Source: a phage. Taken from it: DNA of 64,000 nucleotides. This document shows positions 9,457 to 58,205 of this stretch, in pieces; the stretch's first letter is position 1; the number at the start of each line of letters is the position of its first letter. The notes under the pieces were generated by a model. That model was not told the DNA's origin. It saw only the letters and a list, made by a program, of their open reading frames with translations, and searched no databases. The DNA lies in NCBI GenBank assembly GCA_022979955.1, contig GCA_022979955.1_3642.1. One strand, given 5' to 3'. Both the position numbers and the translations under genes were made by a program.

Positions 9457-10640
9457 TGTCAAGAAACGTATTTGAAAGTGGTCAAATCACTGTCCGTGAG
9501 TTGCCAGCTATCATTCAGTTTGCCCAGCGTCATAACCGATCTGTCCTGATTTTAGGACCAATGGGTGTGGGAAAGAGTCAGGTGATGAAGCAGATCGCTG
9601 ATAATATGTTCGGTGAGCGAGATGACAACCTGGTTGACGTGCGGCTGTCAGATAAAGATCCTGCCGACTTATCTGGGCTACCTATCCCTGTAGAAGCGGA
9701 TGGGACTACACGTACAGTGTTTGCAATCCCAGAATTTTGGCCTGCGGATCCTGACTGGAGCGGAATTGTCTTTCTGGATGAGCTCACTCATGCAGATAAC
9801 TACCTGCAAAAGGTTGCAATGCAGATTATGCTCGACCACAAGTGCGGCACCTATGCATTCCCTAAGGGCTCTGTTTTTGTAGCTGCAGGTAACCGTTCTA
9901 CAGATGGTGCTGTTCTTTCGGCGCTCGAAGCCCCTCTGGCTAACCGCTTTATCATTGTAGAAGTTACAAGCAACGCAGAGGTGTTTATTGAGGACTACGC
10001 ATTCCTTAATGGGGTGCACTCCTCTGTAATTGGATATCTGAAAAGAGTTCCATCAGCTATTGATAATTATGAGGCCATGGCTGAGATTAATTGTCCATCT
10101 TTTGCCACACCGCGATCTTGGGTTGCTGCATCTGATATCTTGCACGATTTTGACAGCGGTATTATTTCTGACGCTATGGCCCGTGTTCTTCTGCAAGGTG
10201 CTATTGGTCACACTGCAGCGGTAGAGATCTGGACTTACCACACCAAGAAACGCAACTTACCGGAAATCGGTCGGATTATGGCAGGAGGTTGCAAAGAATA
10301 CGTAGGCCCTAAACAGCCAGACATCTTGTGGATTCTTGGATCTGAAGGTTGTATCGCTATTCGTAATATGATGGAAAATGCAAGTATCTCCGACGAAGAT
10401 CTTGTTAGCTGTGTGGCAAACTTCCTCGATTTCCTTTGGGAAAACTTCAAGGACGAGAACCGAGATTTTGTATTCTCAGTCTTTATGGCGATGATGAAAC
10501 CTAATGCCTTAGGAAATGCCTTGCTTATCGGTAAAGGTCGTGACAAGATTGTTGCTCAGCTGATCAAAGCATACCCAAACCTGATGAAGATTGTAAAAGA
10601 GTTTGGTGAAGAGTTTAGCGCCATTTTGGCTAAAGCTTAA
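9456..10640 (+). CDS. AAA+ ATPase, MoxR/CbbQ-like
   Basis: Walker A GPMGVGKS and Walker B IVFLDELTHAD; size and motif spacing fit MoxR-type ATPases that partner with vWA proteins. Confidence 0.75.
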   Translation: MSRNVFESGQITVRELPAIIQFAQRHNRSVLILGPMGVGKSQVMKQIADNMFGERDDNLVDVRLSDKDPADLSGLPIPVEADGTTRTVFAIPEFWPADPDWSGIVFLDELTHADNYLQKVAMQIMLDHKCGTYAFPKGSVFVAAGNRSTDGAVLSALEAPLANRFIIVEVTSNAEVFIEDYAFLNGVHSSVIGYLKRVPSAIDNYEAMAEINCPSFATPRSWVAASDILHDFDSGIISDAMARVLLQGAIGHTAAVEIWTYHTKKRNLPEIGRIMAGGCKEYVGPKQPDILWILGSEGCIAIRNMMENASISDEDLVSCVANFLDFLWENFKDENRDFVFSVFMAMMKPNALGNALLIGKGRDKIVAQLIKAYPNLMKIVKEFGEEFSAILAKA

Positions 10641-10649
10641 GGAGGTTGT

Positions 10650-11030
10650 ATGGCTAAAGTAGGTAAGCGGGGAAACTACCTGGTGGTATTGACCGAGGAG
10701 CCGGAGAAGGAGTACGAATGCAGCTCCACTTGCGTGATCGATATCCGAGAAAAAGATGTAGATGAAATCTGGTTTAAAATATTGGACGCTTGCGATAGCA
10801 GTGATTATTTCTTCATCTATGTCAACGATAAGGCTGGGTTCTTCCATGACGACGGAGAGTTGCCGTATGAAATCTATGAACTTGTAGAGGCTTGCCATCG
10901 TGGAGATGCGGAGTTGTTTGGCTTACGGCTGAAAAGCGGTAAATTCTTCTATCAAGATGAGTGCATGAATCTTCATAACTTTGTAGAGGGAACTTGCAAC
11001 GATGGAGAGATTTTGGCACACTACGATTAA
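10650..11030 (+). CDS. hypothetical protein
   Basis: 126-aa ORF with GGAGG SD. Confidence 0.45.
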   Translation: MAKVGKRGNYLVVLTEEPEKEYECSSTCVIDIREKDVDEIWFKILDACDSSDYFFIYVNDKAGFFHDDGELPYEIYELVEACHRGDAELFGLRLKSGKFFYQDECMNLHNFVEGTCNDGEILAHYD

Positions 11031-11079: not shown

Positions 11080-11580
11080 GTGAAAATTAAGATCTTTGCT
11101 ATTATTTTGAGCGCATTTTTATCGCTGCCTGTTGTTGCAGCACCAAAACAAAAAGTATACCATACTTGCAAGCCATCAGATACTAAGGAAAACATTTTGG
11201 CATGTAATATCTACAGGGAAGCTAGAGGGGATGGCACGATGGGTATGCTGGCATCTGGGTTTGCCACATTAAACAGGAAATCTCACCCTAAATACCCAGA
11301 CACTATAAGAAAGATTGTCTACCAACCTAACCAGTTTTCGTGGACAAACCACGGCAAAACTTTTAAGGTGACAGAAAAAGATTCATGGGATCACGCTAAA
11401 AGTCTTGCAAAGATGCTTCTAAAGGTCTATAATAACAACCATGTTGCATACATGGCTATGGACATAACAGGTGGAGCAACACACTACCATACAACCAAAG
11501 TACGACCGAAATGGGCAAAAAAGATGCAGAGGACAGCTCAATTCGGGAGCCATATCTACTACAAGGAGCGCAATAAATGA
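11080..11580 (+). CDS. secreted cell-wall hydrolase, SleB/CwlJ-like
   Basis: GTG start after GGAG; N-terminal signal peptide; NIYREARGD, QPNQFSW and THYH motifs typical of SleB-type hydrolase domain. Confidence 0.7.
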   Translation: MKIKIFAIILSAFLSLPVVAAPKQKVYHTCKPSDTKENILACNIYREARGDGTMGMLASGFATLNRKSHPKYPDTIRKIVYQPNQFSWTNHGKTFKVTEKDSWDHAKSLAKMLLKVYNNNHVAYMAMDITGGATHYHTTKVRPKWAKKMQRTAQFGSHIYYKERNK

Positions 11581-49168: not shown

Positions 49169-49193
49169 AGAGGGGCCCAAGCCCCCCTCTTTG
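49169..49193 (-). terminator. rho-independent terminator (possibly bidirectional)
   Basis: AGAGGGG/CCCCTCT stem with 8-nt loop; U-rich run on minus strand (TTTTACTATCT). Confidence 0.5.
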
Positions 49194-50290: not shown

Positions 50291-50578
50291 TCATAGTGCC
50301 TCTAAGATTTCATATCCTTCGGGTCGGAATACAAGCCACTCTGTGGCTCCGTTTGGTCGATACGCTTTATACAGAACAACCTGGTCTCGGCACATGCACA
50401 TGGCTACATAGTTTTCATCCACACCTGCAGCCTGCATTGTATCTTCTTCTCCGGCAACTGCTTTGCTTACAACCTCCTTGGTAGGCAGGTGTGCGATCAG
50501 CTCGTCACCATCATTAATTCCAAAATGGCTGAGTTCTCCATTGGTATCTTTAATCTTAATCTTAACCAGATCTTTCAT
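50291..50578 (-). CDS. hypothetical protein
   Basis: 95-aa ORF. Confidence 0.4.
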   Translation of the reverse strand: MKDLVKIKIKDTNGELSHFGINDGDELIAHLPTKEVVSKAVAGEEDTMQAAGVDENYVAMCMCRDQVVLYKAYRPNGATEWLVFRPEGYEILEAL

Positions 50579-50907
50579 TAGTCTTCCTCCAGGTTCAAAG
50601 GTCCTAAGATTTCATATGCCAGATTAGAAGTTACCAGAGGGTCTTCTGCATCTTTAGTATTATACCACCCGTGAATAACCAGAGTCCCACTCTGTTTCAT
50701 ATCTAACTGGAACTGTTCTGCAGTTTCCTCATCCATCTCTAAGATCTCCATAAGGTACTTGATGTTAGGAAGGTATGCAGCTGTTACAGTTCCCTCTACC
50801 AGACCTTCGGGCCAACCTACATCCGGATGACAAGTAGGAACCAGGTTGGTCAGCTTAATGGTGTACGCTTTTTCTGCACGAGCCTTCAGTAACGGGTCAA
50901 TTTTCAT
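50578..50907 (-). CDS. hypothetical protein
   Basis: 109-aa ORF, 1-nt overlaps with both neighbours. Confidence 0.4.
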   Translation of the reverse strand: MKIDPLLKARAEKAYTIKLTNLVPTCHPDVGWPEGLVEGTVTAAYLPNIKYLMEILEMDEETAEQFQLDMKQSGTLVIHGWYNTKDAEDPLVTSNLAYEILGPLNLEED

Positions 50908-51257
50908 TATTCGTCCTCCTCTTCGGTGCCTGCTTCCAGTAATAAGTTAAGAATATCTTCTGCACAAGGCTCATAGAACTCTTGGCCTTCATTATCGATG
51001 ATTTTGTAGTCATCTCCACGAATAATCAGGGGATCACTCTCAAAATTATCGAGACCTTTAACAACGACAACACGATCGATTGCCATCATTGTAAGAACTT
51101 TATCGACATTTTCCTCTGCTACACCATACTGCAGCAGAATGTCTTTGGTAGGAGGAACAGCATCCACAACAACACCGTTACCAAAACCTTCCGGAAGTTT
51201 AACTAAAATATCTTCCGGAACAACATTCACATCAAAACCAGTAATTTCTACTTTCAT
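50907..51257 (-). CDS. hypothetical acidic protein
   Basis: 116-aa ORF starting MKVEI, acidic C-terminus. Confidence 0.4.
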   Translation of the reverse strand: MKVEITGFDVNVVPEDILVKLPEGFGNGVVVDAVPPTKDILLQYGVAEENVDKVLTMMAIDRVVVVKGLDNFESDPLIIRGDDYKIIDNEGQEFYEPCAEDILNLLLEAGTEEEDE

Positions 51258-51518
51258 TTACAGCACCTCTTCGTCAACTACTTCATAAAAATGGCTTGGG
51301 ATTGCAATAGCGTTCTCACCTTCACCCAAGAACACTGTCCCACTAACGATTAACATTAGAAGAACGTCTGCGATACCTTCCTCGGGGACGTTGCCAAAAC
51401 CTTTAATCAGCTCGTAGGTTGGAATATTTACCTCTAAGATGTCACCATCTTTAGAACGGAAATCAACACCGTCCTGAATCTCTGCCGTTTCAAGGTTTTT
51501 CAATTTAATCTTCATCAA
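51258..51518 (-). CDS. small acidic protein, paralog family A
   Basis: MMKIKL... ending ...YEVVDEEVL; shares N- and C-terminal pattern with 52685, 54211, 54455, 57972. Confidence 0.45.
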   Translation of the reverse strand: MMKIKLKNLETAEIQDGVDFRSKDGDILEVNIPTYELIKGFGNVPEEGIADVLLMLIVSGTVFLGEGENAIAIPSHFYEVVDEEVL

Positions 51519-51594
51519 TCGGTCTCCTATCTTGTTAAGATGAAGGTATTATTTCACACAGGGTTGGCGTTGTCAACACCTGTGTGCAAGAAAA

Positions 51595-51990
51595 TTACTG
51601 AAACAGTGCGGATAAATTACCTTCTGGTGGGAACTTATCTGCCAAAAACGGTGTTAGCACAGTAGCCTTCTGAAGATCTGGGGTCCACTCGTTGTTCAGA
51701 ACATCCCAGTAGTACGCAATGTTACTGTGTGGGTGCCGCATTACGAACTTTTTCCCCTCGTAGTCATCTGAAACCTCTACAGAAGAAATAACAACAGAAT
51801 CTTCAAGGGTTTCTTCATAGAAAGATCCGCCTTCAAATTTCCAACGAGATGCAAGAGCCCCTGCCTTGAACGCTGCAGATAACGGACTGTCGGCAAGAAC
51901 ATACATTTCTTGCACTCTGTCGCTGCGATCTTTGCTTCTTACGTTGTATACAGTATCTGAGCTATACTCAACACGGTATAGGCTTACCAT
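51595..51990 (-). CDS. hypothetical protein, paralog family B
   Basis: Shares KFVMRHPHS...YW...EWTP with 53800..54198. Confidence 0.45.
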   Translation of the reverse strand: MVSLYRVEYSSDTVYNVRSKDRSDRVQEMYVLADSPLSAAFKAGALASRWKFEGGSFYEETLEDSVVISSVEVSDDYEGKKFVMRHPHSNIAYYWDVLNNEWTPDLQKATVLTPFLADKFPPEGNLSALFQ

Positions 51991-52322
51991 TACCGCACCT
52001 CCTCAATAACTTCCACATCTGAACCCACCACAAATGCAAAAGGACAGGTTTCATGAAAGACATCCGGATCGCCGCCAAGCTTGCTAACAATTTCTCCACC
52101 ACTAATAAACACAAGCTCACCGATATTCATCAGATTGCTGAAATAGTATCCATAATGATTAAAGAATGCAGCAGGGTCAGGTAGACTAGTAGCCTCAAGT
52201 TCTACATCGGTTGAGATTACTTTCTTATCATAACCTCTCGCCTTCTGAGATGCAAGATCTGCAGAATCTTCAGGCGACCGGAGATGCACAGGAATTGTTT
52301 CACCAATAAATCGTACTTTCAT
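51990..52322 (-). CDS. small acidic protein, paralog family A
   Basis: ATG at 52322 (MKVRFIG...); ends ...DVEVIEEVR; the track start at 52349 is a TTG without SD. Confidence 0.4.
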   Translation of the reverse strand: MKVRFIGETIPVHLRSPEDSADLASQKARGYDKKVISTDVELEATSLPDPAAFFNHYGYYFSNLMNIGELVFISGGEIVSKLGGDPDVFHETCPFAFVVGSDVEVIEEVR

Positions 52323-52326
52323 ATTC

Positions 52327-52590
52327 TTACCCAACAACCATAGCTTCAAAAGGAGTCATGAACGAATAAACGGCATCATCATCTGCTTCAGGAAATGCTC
52401 CCAAAGACTTCATATCTGAGCCCTTGACAAATACAAGGTTTTGATCAAAAGCTTCTTGAGGGTCAATCCGATACATATCTCGTAGGATATCGCTTACCTC
52501 CTCATCAAGAGGTGAGTATGCTGTGCACGTTTTTCCGATCAAGCTTTGAGAATCAGGGTATCCACCTGAAGTTTTAAAATAAACAATCAT
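52327..52590 (-). CDS. hypothetical protein
   Basis: 87-aa ORF. Confidence 0.4.
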   Translation of the reverse strand: MIVYFKTSGGYPDSQSLIGKTCTAYSPLDEEVSDILRDMYRIDPQEAFDQNLVFVKGSDMKSLGAFPEADDDAVYSFMTPFEAMVVG

Positions 52591-52684
52591 ATAGTATCAC
52601 CTCTGGCAAGAGATGGGGATTCCTTTCCCACAAATAATTACAAACTTTTCTTTTTATTGAGGGAGTATGCTAATCAAAGCAGGA

Positions 52685-52954
52685 TTACTCTTCTACAATC
52701 TCATACACATCAGGAGTTACAATCAACTCTTCTCCGTTACCTGGTGCAACAAACACCACCAAGCCTTCAGGTGTGTGCTTTTTAGCCATCTCGATGACAT
52801 CTTCTCGCAGAGCTGGCTCCATCAGATCAAAGCCTTCACCCAGTGCATCACGAACTACCTTCATGTAGTCCACTGGTTGTGCTTCAACGATCATGCCTTC
52901 AACCAGTCCGCAGTTTTTGTCTGCCAGCTCAGTTTTGAATAATTTAATTTTCAT
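52685..52954 (-). CDS. small acidic protein, paralog family A
   Basis: MKIKLF... ending ...YEIVEE. Confidence 0.45.
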   Translation of the reverse strand: MKIKLFKTELADKNCGLVEGMIVEAQPVDYMKVVRDALGEGFDLMEPALREDVIEMAKKHTPEGLVVFVAPGNGEELIVTPDVYEIVEE

Positions 52955-52980
52955 TTAGAGGTCTCCTCGATTATTTGATA

Positions 52981-53082
52981 TTAATAGCCGTAACCTAACA
53001 CATTAACTACAACTGCGATTGCAAACATAATTTCAAAGCATGCAATCTCTACATTTGGGACTAATTTCTTAATCATACCCAT
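52981..53082 (-). CDS. small hydrophobic peptide (33 aa)
   Basis: ATG after GAGGTG on minus strand; hydrophobic core. Confidence 0.3.
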   Translation of the reverse strand: MGMIKKLVPNVEIACFEIMFAIAVVVNVLGYGY

Positions 53083-53091
53083 TGTAGCACC

Positions 53092-53409
53092 TCAATCCCA
53101 AAAGTCAATCTTTACTTTACCTTTTCCCTTACCTTTCTTTCCACCGCATTTAGCCAACTGGCGTGCTGCAACATCCACCATACGGTCAGTTGCCTCGTAA
53201 GCATCGCTACCTTTAGCTTTGGCGATAACTTCTTTCCCAGAATTGTCAAAAATAAAAGCCATAACTTCCTGGTGATCATTTTCAACTTTTACACTCACAC
53301 GTGCATAGTTGGCAGAGGGGTGCAAGCGCTCCAGCTTGGACATTTTGTGGGAAATGAAAGACACCATACCTTCAGTGATCTCTACGTTGCCAGTGATTTC
53401 AATCTGCAT
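53092..53409 (-). CDS. hpf: ribosome hibernation promoting factor (HPF/RaiA family)
   Basis: MQIEITGNVEITEGM...KLER...VKVE...AKGSDAYEATDRMVDVAARQLAK closely follows bacterial HPF/YfiA sequence pattern as recalled; Lys/Gly-rich tail. Confidence 0.8.
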   Translation of the reverse strand: MQIEITGNVEITEGMVSFISHKMSKLERLHPSANYARVSVKVENDHQEVMAFIFDNSGKEVIAKAKGSDAYEATDRMVDVAARQLAKCGGKKGKGKGKVKIDFWD

Positions 53410-53456
53410 AACGTGCTCCTTTTAAAGAAGAGGGAACCAAACCCTCTTTGAAAATA

Positions 53457-53485
53457 ATGATACTAAAGATCAAATGTTGTGTCAA
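53457..53485 (-). promoter_or_regulatory. sigma70-like promoter for hpf
   Basis: TTGACA-17-TATCAT on minus strand, then leader hairpin AAGAGGG-TTTGGTT-CCCTCTT and AAGGAG. Confidence 0.55.
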
Positions 53486-53491
53486 CAGTTT

Positions 53492-53782
53492 TTACAGCTT
53501 GTCGTCGATAGTTTTTAAAATATCTACTGCAAGATCTGCCATTTTACGAACATACTCTGCAAACTCAACAGGATCCTTGATCAATGAGTTCACAGGGTCA
53601 TACCCTAAAGCGTTTAAAATGGCTACAGCATCCACAACCTTCTCATCATTTGCGAAGATCTCACCGTCAAACTTGTAGGTCCATTTTGAGTCAATCTTGG
53701 CATGGCAGGATTGGTCCATGCTTATTACACCATCTTTTTTAAACGATTCGGTGTTATCAGTGTCCAAAACTAAATCCATCAT
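53492..53782 (-). CDS. hypothetical protein
   Basis: 96-aa ORF. Confidence 0.4.
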   Translation of the reverse strand: MMDLVLDTDNTESFKKDGVISMDQSCHAKIDSKWTYKFDGEIFANDEKVVDAVAILNALGYDPVNSLIKDPVEFAEYVRKMADLAVDILKTIDDKL

Positions 53783-53799
53783 GTAAGTACCCCACTATT

Positions 53800-54198
53800 T
53801 CAGCTTATTTTTTCTTCAACAACCCCGTAGCTCGGGGCAGAGTCAAGAGCTTTCTGGTTTAAAAGTGGTGTAGCAGAATCTGCAAACGGTGTCCAAGTTT
53901 TTGTTCTGGCATTCCAGTAATGCTTCACTCTGGAATCCGGATGCACTATAACAAAAACTTTTTCACTTGTCAACACATTAATTTCTTCTACACCCTTGCT
54001 GATAATTTCTCCGTCATAGCCCCCAGTCTGGTATCCTTCGTACCAGGTTCTTGCATAGGCATAGCCAGCCTGCCAGCATGCAGCCTCCTCCGAGGTGGAG
54101 ACTACGTAGAAGTCTTTCTCAAATTCCGGAATACGCCCTTGCTTTACGCTCCAAGCTCCGCGAATTTTCATTGTAACTTTGAACAGTTTATTTTTCAC
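53800..54198 (-). CDS. hypothetical protein, paralog family B
   Basis: Shares KVFVIVHPDS...YW...TWTP with 51595..51990. Confidence 0.45.
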   Translation of the reverse strand: MKNKLFKVTMKIRGAWSVKQGRIPEFEKDFYVVSTSEEAACWQAGYAYARTWYEGYQTGGYDGEIISKGVEEINVLTSEKVFVIVHPDSRVKHYWNARTKTWTPFADSATPLLNQKALDSAPSYGVVEEKIS

Positions 54199-54210
54199 AA
54201 CGGTTACCCA

Positions 54211-54465
54211 TCACAGCTCTACAATATCTGCATCTGACCCTGCCCCAAAGGCATAATAGGACTCTTCCCCGAAATAATATTCAGGTGCACCAGCGGTGAT
54301 CAGGTCTGCTCCTAAGATAAACACCACGTTGTGGCCTACATAACTGTGATGTTGCCGCACAGGATCATCCCACGGCAACCCTTCGAAGTATACCGCAGGA
54401 ACGACCTTTCCATTCAGGAAGGATTGTCCCAAGTAGACGTTAGAATCAAGAATTTTAACCTTCAT
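54211..54465 (-). CDS. small acidic protein, paralog family A
   Basis: MKVKILDSNVYLGQ...GADLITAGA...; tandem with 54455. Confidence 0.45.
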   Translation of the reverse strand: MKVKILDSNVYLGQSFLNGKVVPAVYFEGLPWDDPVRQHHSYVGHNVVFILGADLITAGAPEYYFGEESYYAFGAGSDADIVEL

Positions 54466-54682
54466 GATCGTCCTCCACTACCTCTACATCCTCACCTAGG
54501 GCAAAGTTGTAGGTCCACTGACTGTCAAAGCATTCCTGAGATGCACCAGCGGCAATAAGATCTGCTCCTTTTATTTTTAAAAGGTCATGGTAATCTTCGT
54601 TAGGGACAGCAGTAAACACTTTTCCTACTAAAGGATCCTGACCAATATAGAAGCTTGAATCTAAAACTTTAACTTTCATCAA
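54455..54682 (-). CDS. small acidic protein, paralog family A
   Basis: MMKVKVLDSSFYIGQ...GADLIAAGA...EVVEDD. Confidence 0.45.
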   Translation of the reverse strand: MMKVKVLDSSFYIGQDPLVGKVFTAVPNEDYHDLLKIKGADLIAAGASQECFDSQWTYNFALGEDVEVVEDDHEG

Positions 54683-54963
54683 CGGTCTCCATCAGGTGGT
54701 TGTGGGACGTAAACACTGTTACGAATATCGTCCGCAGTATAGTAATAAGTGTCTCCAACCCTATCTCTGGCTGCAATGTACTCTGCTATACCAATAAGTG
54801 CCATTGATTTGGTGGCGTATCTTCCCCATTCGTTAGCTCCCCAGCAAAATCTCTGCCAAAACGGTATGAAACCGAATAGGTACACCTTCTGTTTCACTAT
54901 CCAATAAGTTCCTTTACAGATCACTTTAAACTCTGCAGCACTGTTACTGACACCATTGTTCAT
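54679..54963 (-). CDS. hypothetical protein
   Basis: 94-aa ORF. Confidence 0.4.
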   Translation of the reverse strand: MNNGVSNSAAEFKVICKGTYWIVKQKVYLFGFIPFWQRFCWGANEWGRYATKSMALIGIAEYIAARDRVGDTYYYTADDIRNSVYVPQPPDGDR

Positions 54964-54975
54964 TATCTTCTCCTT

Positions 54976-55260
54976 TTATTTTTCTGGGTTTGGCAGATAT
55001 TGCACATTGGCAGGAGGAACACCGGATAGCTCCCAAACAACCATAGTGCTGTACCCTGGCACACTTCTAACATTTAAAAGAGTAGGAGCACCAACACATT
55101 TAAACTTCCTTTTCCCAAATCCGTTCTCCATCATAACCCAGTATCCGGTATCCTGATCACCTGGAATTTGTGTTCCATCATCGTCCACCCAGCGGACGGT
55201 CCATTTTGATACAGCAACGGCTCGGTATTTAAACTTTTTAAACCACTCAAACAGTTTCAT
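54976..55260 (-). CDS. hypothetical protein
   Basis: ATG at 55260 lies 8 nt after GAGG; longer ORF start overlaps upstream gene. Confidence 0.4.
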   Translation of the reverse strand: MKLFEWFKKFKYRAVAVSKWTVRWVDDDGTQIPGDQDTGYWVMMENGFGKRKFKCVGAPTLLNVRSVPGYSTMVVWELSGVPPANVQYLPNPEK

Positions 55261-55444
55261 CTTCAGCCTCGCTTGGCAGCTCTTCCATTTTGACATACCG
55301 GAAAGTGTTGCCGTAATAGTTGATCCATGACATCAGCTCGCTTTCTTGCTCTTCCTCTGGGATTGACTCTCGGATGCTGACAAGTTTTAAGAAAATCCAA
55401 TCACAATCTACACCCATCCTACCAGACAGGCAATAGTGCTTCAT
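55247..55444 (-). CDS. hypothetical acidic protein
   Basis: 65-aa ORF. Confidence 0.35.
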   Translation of the reverse strand: MKHYCLSGRMGVDCDWIFLKLVSIRESIPEEEQESELMSWINYYGNTFRYVKMEELPSEAEDETV

Positions 55445-55462
55445 AGAACCCTCCCGACTGGT

Positions 55463-55657
55463 TTAGAATATTGCTTCTTCCATTGCACCTGAGAGCAACA
55501 AAGAGGTAATATGGCTAACATTCATCTCAGACTCTACTTCCTCCCCTTTGAAAGGTTCGCGGCAGAATAGGACTGTTTCAGGACTTTTACTTCGAACAAT
55601 ATAATACAAATCATTCAAAGTGTTGTAGTAATAAGTGTTAAAACGTAAGTTTTTCAT
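55463..55657 (-). CDS. hypothetical protein
   Basis: 64-aa ORF. Confidence 0.4.
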   Translation of the reverse strand: MKNLRFNTYYYNTLNDLYYIVRSKSPETVLFCREPFKGEEVESEMNVSHITSLLLSGAMEEAIF

Positions 55658-55941
55658 TTTCTAGTCCCCTTCTTAGATTTTTGTGCAGAAACGCTTTCTG
55701 CAATACGAGACAGGCGTTCTTCTGAAGCTTTACCTACCCCAGGTTTCTTGAGCGGGTTATCTTTATGACCGCAATCCAATTGGATGCTAGATACCTCCCC
55801 AACCTTGTAAGTCAATTCTAACAAAAGGTTGTCGTCCTTGTCAAATGTTTTTACGATAAATTTTTTATCGTCCTCCTGAACCTCATATCGGGTACCTGCA
55901 GTATACAGCATGGTGCCATCAGTATAGGATATCCAGATCAT
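55654..55941 (-). CDS. hypothetical protein
   Basis: 95-aa ORF, overlaps neighbours by 4 nt. Confidence 0.4.
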   Translation of the reverse strand: MIWISYTDGTMLYTAGTRYEVQEDDKKFIVKTFDKDDNLLLELTYKVGEVSSIQLDCGHKDNPLKKPGVGKASEERLSRIAESVSAQKSKKGTRK

Positions 55942-56285
55942 TGAGCCTCCTTCTGCTGCAACAGCATTAACTCTTTGTTAGAGATCTTTACTGCTGTTTT
56001 TATTGTTCCATCTTCACGGAACCACGACCAGAACTCTACAGTGTCACCACTATCAAGCAAAGCATGCCCATGGTAAAAATCCTTGTCCTTAGACAGTTTC
56101 TCATCTATATCTGCATCAACACATTCGTGATCCATAGCATTTTGCCTGAATGCATCGGTTATGCCAATGCATGCCTTGCTCTCAAGACTGGTATATCCGA
56201 TATCTTTTAATTCAGTTTCCCAAGTCCAGTATCCTACAAAAGCTACAACAGCTGCCCACATTAATACCGACTTAATCTTTGGCAT
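55938..56285 (-). CDS. protein with N-terminal signal/TM segment
   Basis: N-terminus MPKIKSVLMWAAVVAFVGYWTW. Confidence 0.4.
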   Translation of the reverse strand: MPKIKSVLMWAAVVAFVGYWTWETELKDIGYTSLESKACIGITDAFRQNAMDHECVDADIDEKLSKDKDFYHGHALLDSGDTVEFWSWFREDGTIKTAVKISNKELMLLQQKEAQ

Positions 56286-56345
56286 TCTCTCTACCTCTTT
56301 CTTAGTTTATTTAATCATGGCACATCCTTTGTGCCTTGTTGCACA

Positions 56346-56807
56346 CTACTTGAACAACAGTTCAAGATAGTGCAAAATTAACAGAAGTTGAATTACGCCT
56401 AGCACAACGGCGAGTATGTTAATCTTAGAATCAAAAAACTTCTTAACTTTTACCCTAAAAGGCTCTTTAATGTCCTTTACGATCCTATTTATAGATGATT
56501 TCATATCCCTGATTACCATCCTAAACATTAGAGACGGATCCTCCTTCTCTGTAACAGAATCGAAAACATACTCTCTTCGGTCATAAGGCCCTCCAGATCT
56601 GCGTATTAACCTCTCCACAGAGACCTCGTACGACACACCTGTAACGTAATCATCTATGACAAGTAGTGACGGGTCTTTATCATCCAAGGGTATCAAAGTT
56701 ATCTTTCCAGATCTTGTTAAAATTTCTCCTTTTTCAAGCAAGGTGTACCAATGCTCTCTACCAAGGTTGTTGAGGCACGTTTTTACATATTTAACAAACA
56801 TCGTCAC
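56346..56807 (-). CDS. protein with C-terminal TM anchor
   Basis: C-terminus ...ILAVVLGVIQLLLILHYLELLFK. Confidence 0.45.
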   Translation of the reverse strand: MTMFVKYVKTCLNNLGREHWYTLLEKGEILTRSGKITLIPLDDKDPSLLVIDDYVTGVSYEVSVERLIRRSGGPYDRREYVFDSVTEKEDPSLMFRMVIRDMKSSINRIVKDIKEPFRVKVKKFFDSKINILAVVLGVIQLLLILHYLELLFK

Positions 56808-57007
56808 CCCTCATCACACGTCTGATATAACCATTCTATGAAATCTTGATACCACTCTCCCTCTGAGCGCTCCGTAGGCCAATAATCTTCCCCCTCTCTT
56901 GCATTAAAATCTGAGTATTCGACTTTCCACTCCTTTACCAGCTCGTGGAGAAGGTTTTCAGCCTGTTCTAAGGATTTATTTTTTGTCATTACTGTCCCCT
57001 TTTTCAA
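56804..57007 (-). CDS. hypothetical protein
   Basis: 67-aa ORF. Confidence 0.4.
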   Translation of the reverse strand: MKKGTVMTKNKSLEQAENLLHELVKEWKVEYSDFNAREGEDYWPTERSEGEWYQDFIEWLYQTCDEG

Positions 57008-57209
57008 GATAATTATACATTAGTGCCGCACCACCCAAAATGGCTACCAGCAGTAATACTCCGGAGAGCATTTCAATAAACATGGCTTGAAACATTAGAA
57101 GGTCCCCTCTAATTTCACGCACCATTTTAAATACACACTCTTTTCCCATGAAGATACTGAACTAAGGTCTGTATAGAATGCAATCTCCCTAAGAACAGTA
57201 TAAACAGTT

Positions 57210-57446
57210 TCAGTCACTGTTACCATTCTTATCTTCCTCCTTCATTTTTCTGACGGTTTTACAGTGATCTACCAAGCACATAACAACAATGAAGAGAACG
57301 ACAGGCCAAAAAGGTGCGGCAGTGATTATAGTTATAAAGTCGTCAAACTTAATTTTTCTACAAGATATGATGCAAAGAGTTGCTAAAACAACCATTGTCA
57401 GAAAGGTCAATGCGCAATACCAAACCAACACAGTATCTATGGCCAT
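57210..57446 (-). CDS. small membrane protein (two TM helices)
   Basis: 78-aa hydrophobic ORF. Confidence 0.4.
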   Translation of the reverse strand: MAIDTVLVWYCALTFLTMVVLATLCIISCRKIKFDDFITIITAAPFWPVVLFIVVMCLVDHCKTVRKMKEEDKNGNSD

Positions 57447-57447
57447 A

Positions 57448-57975
57448 TTACATCTCCTGGTTCAAACTGTTAAGAAAGGATACTCTGTCTTCGCTATTTT
57501 TCTCTGTGATATACCCTCCAAACATGGAAAGAATCACATGCTTCAAGTAATCTTTTTCTGGGTCGCTTAGATGATTGCGTGGCTTTATTTCCACATCATG
57601 GTAGTCATACAATCCACAATCATGATACCCCCAGTATCGACACACCTCAATACTGATCGGGAGTTTTTTGTCACACGAAACTTTCCAACGGGTTACGTTG
57701 TTACCAGGGGATAAATCCTCGCCCACCTTCACGAATGACAAATCGTAATTCATAAACTTTTCGTGCAGTTTAAGTACAAAACCCTCTACCTGTGGAGAAA
57801 CACCAGCCACTAGCTGGGCGTATCTATATTTACTTTCAATAATTTTTCGGCGCTTTGCTGTAAGGTTTATTGCAGCAATTTGACTCTCTGAGTATCTCCA
57901 AGGCTTATATATAAATGCTTTCGGGTCTTTATCGCCATAAAAATCTTTCCAATCAACCAGTAGCATACCTGTCAC
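57448..57975 (-). CDS. hypothetical protein
   Basis: 175-aa ORF. Confidence 0.45.
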   Translation of the reverse strand: MTGMLLVDWKDFYGDKDPKAFIYKPWRYSESQIAAINLTAKRRKIIESKYRYAQLVAGVSPQVEGFVLKLHEKFMNYDLSFVKVGEDLSPGNNVTRWKVSCDKKLPISIEVCRYWGYHDCGLYDYHDVEIKPRNHLSDPEKDYLKHVILSMFGGYITEKNSEDRVSFLNSLNQEM

Positions 57976-58205
57976 TCCTCCACAACTTCAAGGCCTTTGC
58001 CGCCTCGTTCTGGTAGATTACTTAAAGACAGGTAATACGTATAGTCAGGAGAGATCCTGCCAGACTCTGCACCTGCAGATAGTAAATCTTTTCCCTTAAC
58101 CATGACAACATTATCGTTTGCAGATAGTCGTTTTGCTTCCACAATTTTACCAACGCAGTCAACCAAGGAAGGGTACCCTAAATCTGTAAGAAATTTAACT
58201 TTCAT
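57972..58205 (-). CDS. small acidic protein, paralog family A
   Basis: MKVKFLTDLGY...GKDLLSAGAE...LEVVEE. Confidence 0.45.
   Translation of the reverse strand: MKVKFLTDLGYPSLVDCVGKIVEAKRLSANDNVVMVKGKDLLSAGAESGRISPDYTYYLSLSNLPERGGKGLEVVEE

Follow-up and report, generated by a model that had tools for sequence, protein, structure and literature searches.

Do the small, acidic and mutually similar genes that lie between 50 and 59 kilobases (kb) of a 64,000-nucleotide phage sequence (contig GCA_022979955.1_3642.1 of assembly GCA_022979955.1; the whole stretch is hereafter the window) form a single tandem family, and are they the product of a running conflict with the host? The region is 93–95% identical to Escherichia phages HMD-6, FV3 and JES2013 and to ∼120 other rV5-like Vequintavirus records, its counterpart in rV5 being found at coordinates ∼93–101 kb in reversed orientation, and all of its plausible genes, named here by their left-hand coordinate, are on the minus strand. 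A sequence-only reading had proposed a tandem family of at least six paralogs, with the gloss that such diversified copies often reflect an arms race with host targets or defences. Tandem diversified paralogs are indeed present and had been under-counted: we find ten genes in two families, A and B, with products of 74–116 residues and isoelectric points (pI) of 4.05–4.7 in nine of the ten, plus a third pair, family C. The original observation was thus real but mis-partitioned and incomplete, and of its interpretation the tandem paralogs stand, while an ongoing arms race finds no support in the evolutionary pattern.

All of the open reading frames (ORFs) named in that reading are present on the minus strand where it placed them, with three start codons corrected (54455 to the ATG at 54679, 51258 to the ATG at 51515 and 51990 to the ATG at 52322). 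The resemblance at their ends was assessed by a census of motifs in the 469 window ORFs of at least 40 residues. The start MK[VI][KR][ILVF] occurs in seven of these and an ending [ED][VI][VI][ED] within the last 12 residues likewise in seven, and the two occur together in just six, which are exactly the six proposed as sharing both ends (51258, 51990, 52685, 54211, 54455 and 57972); the whole rV5 genome gives the same result for five of them. The shared termini are therefore real and non-random, and the census argues against the concern that they might be a compositional illusion. Shared ends do not, however, make the six a single statistically supported family, since they divide between families A and B.

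Family A has three core members that match each other within the region (BLASTP; 54211 against 54455, 41% identity over 83 residues, expectation value (E) 1e-14; 54455 against 57972, E 2e-7) and match PHROG 5009 with E-values of 1.6e-31 (54211), 2e-37 (54455) and 8.5e-36 (57972). These are 57972 (57972–58205, minus strand as are all genes below; 77 residues, pI 5.4, with a loop insertion NLPERGGKG ahead of the last strand), 54455 (54455–54679; 74 residues, pI 4.2, the shortest form of the predicted barrel described below) and 54211 (54211–54465; 84 residues, overlapping 54455 by 11 nucleotides and with an insert of ∼16 residues between strands 2 and 3). A hidden Markov model (HMM) of the three recovers two further genes, 52327 at E 2.4e-6 (52327–52590; 87 residues, ∼22-residue insert between strands 2 and 3, absent from the sequence-only reading) and 51990 at E 7e-5 (51990–52322; 110 residues beginning MKVRF, with insertions after strand 1 and between strands 2 and 3), and a profile of 36 wider-family sequences matches them at E 1e-18 and 3e-15, respectively. 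PHROG 5009 matches 52327 weakly (E 1.2e-4), and 51990 is not listed for it at E ≤ 0.01; PHROG 13661 aligns to 51990 only from residue 10 of the longer ORF. The family pattern runs MKVK(L), Y near position 11, GK(V)V.A, a variable loop, (V)xIxG.DLI.AGA, Y.F and E(V/I)VE(E), and the central segment picked out by the sequence-only reading is found in 54211, 54455 and 57972 as GADLI(T/A)AGA or GKDLLSAGA. Exactly five family A matches are found in the complete rV5 genome, all inside 6.4 kb. One extra candidate in the window, at 10509–10898 on the minus strand (E 0.013), was rejected, as it is antisense to orthologs of rV5 gp003/gp004. The other two of the six, 51258 and 52685, have no significant match to the 36-sequence profile (E 14 and 2.3, respectively), and neither entered the iterative search.

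Those two belong instead with 50291, 50578 and 50907 in family B, whose five members are mutual best matches at marginal E-values of 0.03–0.2. Leave-one-out HMMs, in which a profile of four was searched for the fifth, return the omitted member as top non-seed match in every case (50291 1.4e-5, 50578 1.8e-4, 50907 1.7e-3, 51258 0.012 and 52685 9e-4), the next-best of the 469 ORFs always having an E of 0.6 or worse. By this recovery 50907 is a genuine family B paralog, and 50578 and 50291 had been missed. The claim that 50907 and 58245 share only an N-terminal start with the others consequently holds for 58245, an unrelated gene of PHROG 5748, but fails for 50907. Four of the family B genes form a contiguous array: 51258 (51258–51515; 85 residues from the ATG at 51515), which comes first, just downstream of a sigma-70-like promoter, then 50907 (50907–51257; 116 residues, net charge −20, with an extra acidic C-terminal extension), 50578 (50578–50907; 109 residues, with an N-terminal extension) and 50291 (50291–50578; 95 residues). 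The fifth, 52685 (52685–52954; 89 residues, pI 4.4), stands apart. Family A is likewise partly clustered, with 54455/54211 and 52327/51990 as adjacent pairs.

AlphaFold2 models were made for one protein of each family, 54455 (mean predicted local distance difference test score, pLDDT, 92.2) and 52685 (pLDDT 92.1), with strands assigned by DSSP. The family A model is a five-stranded, partly open SH3/KOW-like barrel of SH3 topology, with strands at residues 2–5, 21–23, 33–37, 56–61 and 65–69, a short loop between strands 2 and 3, and a short helix at 38–43, formed by the DLIxAG segment, after strand 3. In the family B model, likewise a five-stranded SH3/KOW-like barrel, the same strand order is predicted (2–5, 22–27, 66–69, 76–79 and 84–88), with three helices at residues 30–60 inserted between strands 2 and 3 and no helix of at least four residues following strand 3. 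The three helices fall in the loop where the family A members 54211, 52327 and 51990 have their insertions, and from the alignments and models this strand 2–3 loop is the main difference between paralogs, being short in 54455, extended by ∼16–25 residues in 54211, 52327 and 51990 and occupied by the three helices in family B, with lesser differences in other loops. What is conserved is the barrel core and the terminal strands, which carry the MK(V/I)K(L) start and the (Y)E(I/V)VEE end. Among the BFVD models, the top structural match of 52685 is the 50291 ortholog of phage ECP32 (E 7.7e-3). All A and B proteins are single-domain and lack a catalytic signature. Neither the window members nor the 36 wider-family sequences had a relative in scans against Pfam, NCBIfam and PDB sequences, a negative that bears indirectly on kinship with known DNA-mimic or anti-restriction proteins (Ocr, ArdA and Arn), the Pfam KOW and SH3 models giving no match above gathering threshold and the PHROG matches being solely to groups of ‘unknown function’; weak matches to LRAT, SycN, RluB, FBPase and DUF7210 were far below cut-offs and were discarded.

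Several database records bear on individual family B genes. Several GenBank records (HMD-6, S127 BCL3 and ECP26) give the 52685 ortholog the label ‘sigma 54 modulation factor’; such orthologs include L017 3182–3451 and L019 3184–3453. We considered 52685 as a Ribosomal_S30AE (PF02482) protein and rejected this, as it has no Pfam match and its model runs β-β-three helices-β-β-β as opposed to the β-α-β-β-β-α of HPF/RaiA; the label appears to have spilled over in annotation from the HPF gene next to it, at 53092–53409. The rV5 record splits the 50291 ortholog into two overlapping short ORFs (gp148/gp149; L004 13026–13296), a split that reads as a frameshift, either real or a sequencing error. In a 657-base contig of the European Nucleotide Archive, a 98-residue protein (P0125) joins an unrelated N-terminal part, with a precomputed match to PF24132, to the last 55 residues of a 50578-type protein, and would be either a recombinant or an assembly chimera. 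Finally, rV5-like coliphage genomes stand behind 18 GenBank records of the MG0656xx series that bear the name ‘Campylobacter phage’ and give C. jejuni as host. One of them (MG065647.1) encodes a protein 100% identical to that of 50907, and the host label looks doubtful.

The shared strand order raises the possibility that all ten genes derive from a single ancestral barrel gene, family B having gained the helical insert and lost the G-x-D-L-I-x-A-G-A helix. The co-occurrence of both terminal motifs solely in family A members and in 51258 and 52685 is as this would predict, as is the position of the insert in a loop also used by 52327, 54211 and 51990. The family B model aligns with the A-type protein A0A514CYF5 with a template modelling (TM) score of 0.63 normalised to the target and a probability of 0.82 (Foldseek against BFVD), eight of its top 50 BFVD neighbours are also in the list for the family A model, and four of the five B proteins are among the 30 best of the 469 window ORFs when these are compared with the A profile. 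Profile-profile alignment with hhalign gave a collinear A–B alignment from thin profiles (P 3e-4, against P 0.2 for a reversed control), but richer profiles that included orthologs from a distant relative weakened this to P 0.01 and a probability of 4%. Moreover no B member is significant against any A HMM (best E 2.3), the Foldseek cross-match has an E of only 0.47, convergence could yield small barrels with a start at residue 2 and an acidic last strand, and the acidic C-terminus may in part be constrained at the DNA level, its codons also serving as ribosome-binding site for the gene that follows. On balance we rate common ancestry a little above an even chance, plausible but unproven, and do not claim it; if A and B are one superfamily, the original ‘one family’ would be right at a deeper level.

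The age and stability of the two families can be judged from a distant relative, a 128-kb metagenomic contig (L020) that has orthologs across the region at 29–89% identity. The five A genes and the five B genes are all present there as one-to-one counterparts in unchanged order, at 29–74% identity to the window copies, the highest value being that of 57972 (74%). Within the window the paralogous copies are 24–49% identical to each other. The ratio of non-synonymous to synonymous substitution rates (dN/dS), calculated against five close rV5-like genomes, is ∼0.04–0.16 for A and B members, the same as or below that of neighbouring genes. Copy number looks uniform across the rV5-like GenBank records as judged from tblastn hit counts, with two places each for the core A genes in 118 records and one place each for 50907 in 119. 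Because the orthologs are one-to-one and syntenic and dN/dS is low, the duplications appear ancient and stable, and the sequence comparisons show families that arose by old tandem duplications, each copy having been kept as a distinct gene under purifying selection. That each copy is individually maintained speaks for functions that are not redundant, and against an accordion-type arms race still under way.

Family B was confined to rV5-like contigs in the searches made. Family A is wider: a word-indexed search of 5.8 billion proteins gave only 36 clusters at 90% identity, and a full HMMER scan gave 41 representatives at 50% clustering; of the 36 wider-family sequences, 35 match PHROG 5009. 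These are proteins of 63–87 residues with the same consensus, some of them fused tandem repeats with three domains (P0048) or two (P0069 and P0052). They occur in accessory regions in one or two copies. Phage MagusPhagus and lambdoid prophages of E. coli have theirs between antiterminator Q and the holin, a Proteus podophage has two copies within an array of small ORFs, a 42-kb phage has two beside its replication genes, and a T4-like Moonvirus has a member between frd.3 and frd.2. A natural 70-residue chimera (P0015, from contigs of ∼133 kb) has the N-terminal half of 54455 and the C-terminal half of 54211, joined at GADLIxAGA, and points to deletion by recombination between the adjacent paralogs (window 54211–54679) in some phages.

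Might these be actively evolving anti-defence or host-range determinants after all, with copy number and sequence changing fast? Small size, acidity, duplication and an accessory-type location would fit, the chimera shows that recombination between copies occurs, the 50291 ortholog is split in rV5, and the non-family neighbours 57448, 57210 and 54976 are highly variable among rV5-like phages. However, low dN/dS in all family members, not above that of the neighbours, uniform copy number in ∼118 GenBank records and ten one-to-one, syntenic copies at 29–74% identity are the reverse of this expectation, and we regard such rapid evolution as improbable, in preference for old copies retained under purifying selection.

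How the genes are expressed is suggested by two sigma-70-like promoters on the minus strand, each matching the consensus at 11 of 12 positions. One, upstream of the family B array (51548–51576), has TTGACA, a 17-nucleotide spacer and AATAAT, with an upstream TG; the other, upstream of the HPF homolog (53457–53485), has TTGACA, a 17-nucleotide spacer and TATCAT, and the unit behind it includes, besides the HPF homolog, 52685, 52327, 51990 and 51595. Both sites are intergenic, at the positions of promoters P150 (B array) and P144 (HPF homolog) of the rV5 record, and a terminator-like hairpin follows the block at 49187–49171. In rV5, genes 82–163, which cover this stretch, were described as one long transcription unit (PMC3606486); that unit also contains ribonucleotide reductases, thymidylate synthase, PhoH and ClpP. 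None of the rV5 virion proteins named in the text as detected by mass spectrometry is an A or B protein, gp133 being the sole one from the region (PMC3606486).

Recognisable ribosome-binding sites precede most genes of the region, and at five junctions (near 54465–54490, 51990–52015, 51257–51275, 50907–50925 and 50578–50595, minus strand) the GAG/GAA-rich codons for the acidic tails of 54455, 51990, 51258, 50907 and 50578 supply the next gene with its Shine-Dalgarno sequence, so that one stretch of DNA would serve two purposes in translationally coupled pairs. It could then be argued that the shared termini result mainly from genome organisation, by nucleotide-level convergence on GAG/GAA-rich 3′ ends that act as ribosome-binding sites and AAA/AAG-rich 5′ ends that favour initiation. 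The ribosome-binding site of 54211 is indeed within the codons for the EVVEDD tail of 54455, that of 51595 within the EVIEEVR tail of 51990, and those of 50907, 50578 and 50291 within the acidic tails of 51258, 50907 and 50578, respectively. Coupling cannot apply, however, to 52685, which ends in IVEE and is followed by a 94-nucleotide gap, nor does the tail of 54211, which ends in IVEL, contain a clear ribosome-binding site for 53800. The E-x-E-(V/I)-(V/I)-E-E end is kept throughout the wider A family, whose phages are unrelated and whose gene neighbours differ; it forms the last β-strand in both models; and both motifs occur together only in these genes of the window, though many others are as tightly packed. 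We therefore consider it unlikely that genome organisation is the main source of the shared ends.

What would such barrels do? Since the proteins have no catalytic motifs, we infer that the two families of old, retained small acidic barrels act as non-enzymatic binding modules, a reading that we hold at even odds and that extends to binding and host takeover by inference only. Expression would be driven by the host-type promoters of this non-structural section of the genome and would fall in the non-structural phase of infection, and each paralog may use the loops and acidic surface particular to it to bind a different host or phage partner. The outcome could be takeover of the host, nucleic-acid mimicry, or inhibition of either a defence or a host protein, an anti-host or anti-defence role being possible. 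Several points weigh against this reading. Small size and acidity are also frequent in unrelated neighbouring ORFs. Sigma-70-type promoters were found by the rV5 authors throughout the genome (PMC3606486), and are therefore not by themselves proof of ‘early’ expression; the timing of expression is read from promoter consensus and gene position only. The five family A copies could form hetero-oligomers together rather than have five partners. The literature searched contained no functional work on any family A or B gene, searches on rV5/Vequintavirus paralogs or early-gene function returned nothing on these genes, and the paralogs are not mentioned in the rV5 genome paper (PMC3606486). A bolder version, in which A and B are an ancient ten-member superfamily of acidic SH3-like ‘decoys’ with a hypervariable strand 2–3 loop, each neutralising a different host factor or defence system, some by nucleic-acid mimicry, strikes us as a long shot, though if true rV5-like phages would carry a fixed panel of inhibitors on a single scaffold and the single copies of lambdoid prophages and T4-like phages would each be a member exported from this toolkit.

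The remaining genes of the region are of less direct concern. Family C is the pair that the sequence-only reading had recognised by HP(D/H)S..YW..WTP, and its recognition was sound: the motif is visible in both, 51595 (51595–51990; 131 residues) and 53800 (53800–54198; 132 residues) match over 119 residues at 28% identity (BLASTP E 7e-10; phmmer E 1e-9), and both match PHROG 7379 along their full length (E 2e-66 and 1e-73, respectively). The family was found in rV5-like contigs only in the searches made. Each C gene lies directly downstream of an A pair, 53800 after 54455/54211 and 51595 after 52327/51990, and segmental duplication of an A-A-C block (54455-54211-53800 and 52327-51990-51595), which the gene order fits, was kept as a hypothesis and is not claimed; the two A genes of a block resemble each other more than either resembles its positional counterpart, and there is a single C gene in L020, both of which count against it. 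In L020 a gene at 11092–11388 with a match to Phage_P22_Y8K6 (PF27050) is inserted between the C gene and the B array, where the window has only the promoter-bearing intergenic gap. The start MK(V/I)EIT had also suggested 58245 as a relative of 50907, and this was rejected, there being no similarity past the first six residues.

The homolog of the ribosome hibernation factor HPF/RaiA at 53092–53409 (PF02482, E 1.8e-12) sits amid the paralogs with its own sigma-70-like promoter and is already annotated as such in rV5 and relatives. Four non-family genes (57448–57975, 57210–57446, 54976–55296 and 55463–55657) have 49–70% identity to their counterparts in some rV5-like genomes, with flanking genes at 95–100%, and look like local hot spots where alleles are replaced; in BASEL phages the label ‘putative glycosidase’ is given to the 57448 ortholog. 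The window also spans the ends of the rV5 record, position 1 of which corresponds to window 13559 and position 137947 to window 13560, so that this genome is permuted relative to rV5.

Phages of the rV5 type are widely used in biocontrol of E. coli O157 and form part of the BASEL reference collection, and most of their non-structural genes are unannotated. The grouping reduces ten unannotated genes to two families on one fold, possibly one family, and thus to a compact and testable set of targets. It merges eight PHROGs that are now listed apart: PHROG 5009 holds the three core A genes, 13920 holds 52327 and 13661 holds 51990, and five further PHROGs hold family B. The paralogy is thereby not recorded in the database, as the window copies sit in separate groups; the closest catalogued groups, PHROG 5009 together with 13367, 8603 and 7345, are all of ‘unknown function’. 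On present evidence these are uncharacterised accessory families, already catalogued in PHROGs in fragmented form and without function, and do not amount to a new type of system. Large phages commonly carry small paralogous accessory families, and the finding, while real, is fairly ordinary for a large lytic phage.

Known systems offer several comparisons. Small β-barrels of the SH3-like type, such as the KOW domains of Spt5/NusG, PsaE and eukaryotic SH3 domains, are among the closest known proteins in fold, and CarS, an antirepressor of Myxococcus xanthus, is an acidic protein of SH3 topology that mimics operator DNA; it resembles the present proteins in being a small acidic SH3-like barrel, and acts purely by binding. 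Tandem amplification serves as counter-defence in the K3L ‘accordion’ of poxviruses and in the amplification of dmd-tifA in T4, where viral accessory genes are likewise duplicated in tandem. The copies in those systems are recent, near-identical and unstable, however, whereas here they are 24–49% identical, ancient and fixed one-to-one across relatives. Large lytic phages also have host-takeover modules made up of small early proteins, for instance the gp37–60 module of SPO1 and the hyperplastic regions of T4, including frd-32, in which host-type promoters likewise precede arrays of ORFs that are small, often acidic and non-essential-looking; the member of the wider A family in the frd.3–frd.2 region of the T4-like Moonvirus lies in just such a setting. 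Unlike those modules, which consist mostly of unrelated ORFs, the region described here has ten of its genes in two paralog families of what is predicted to be one fold.

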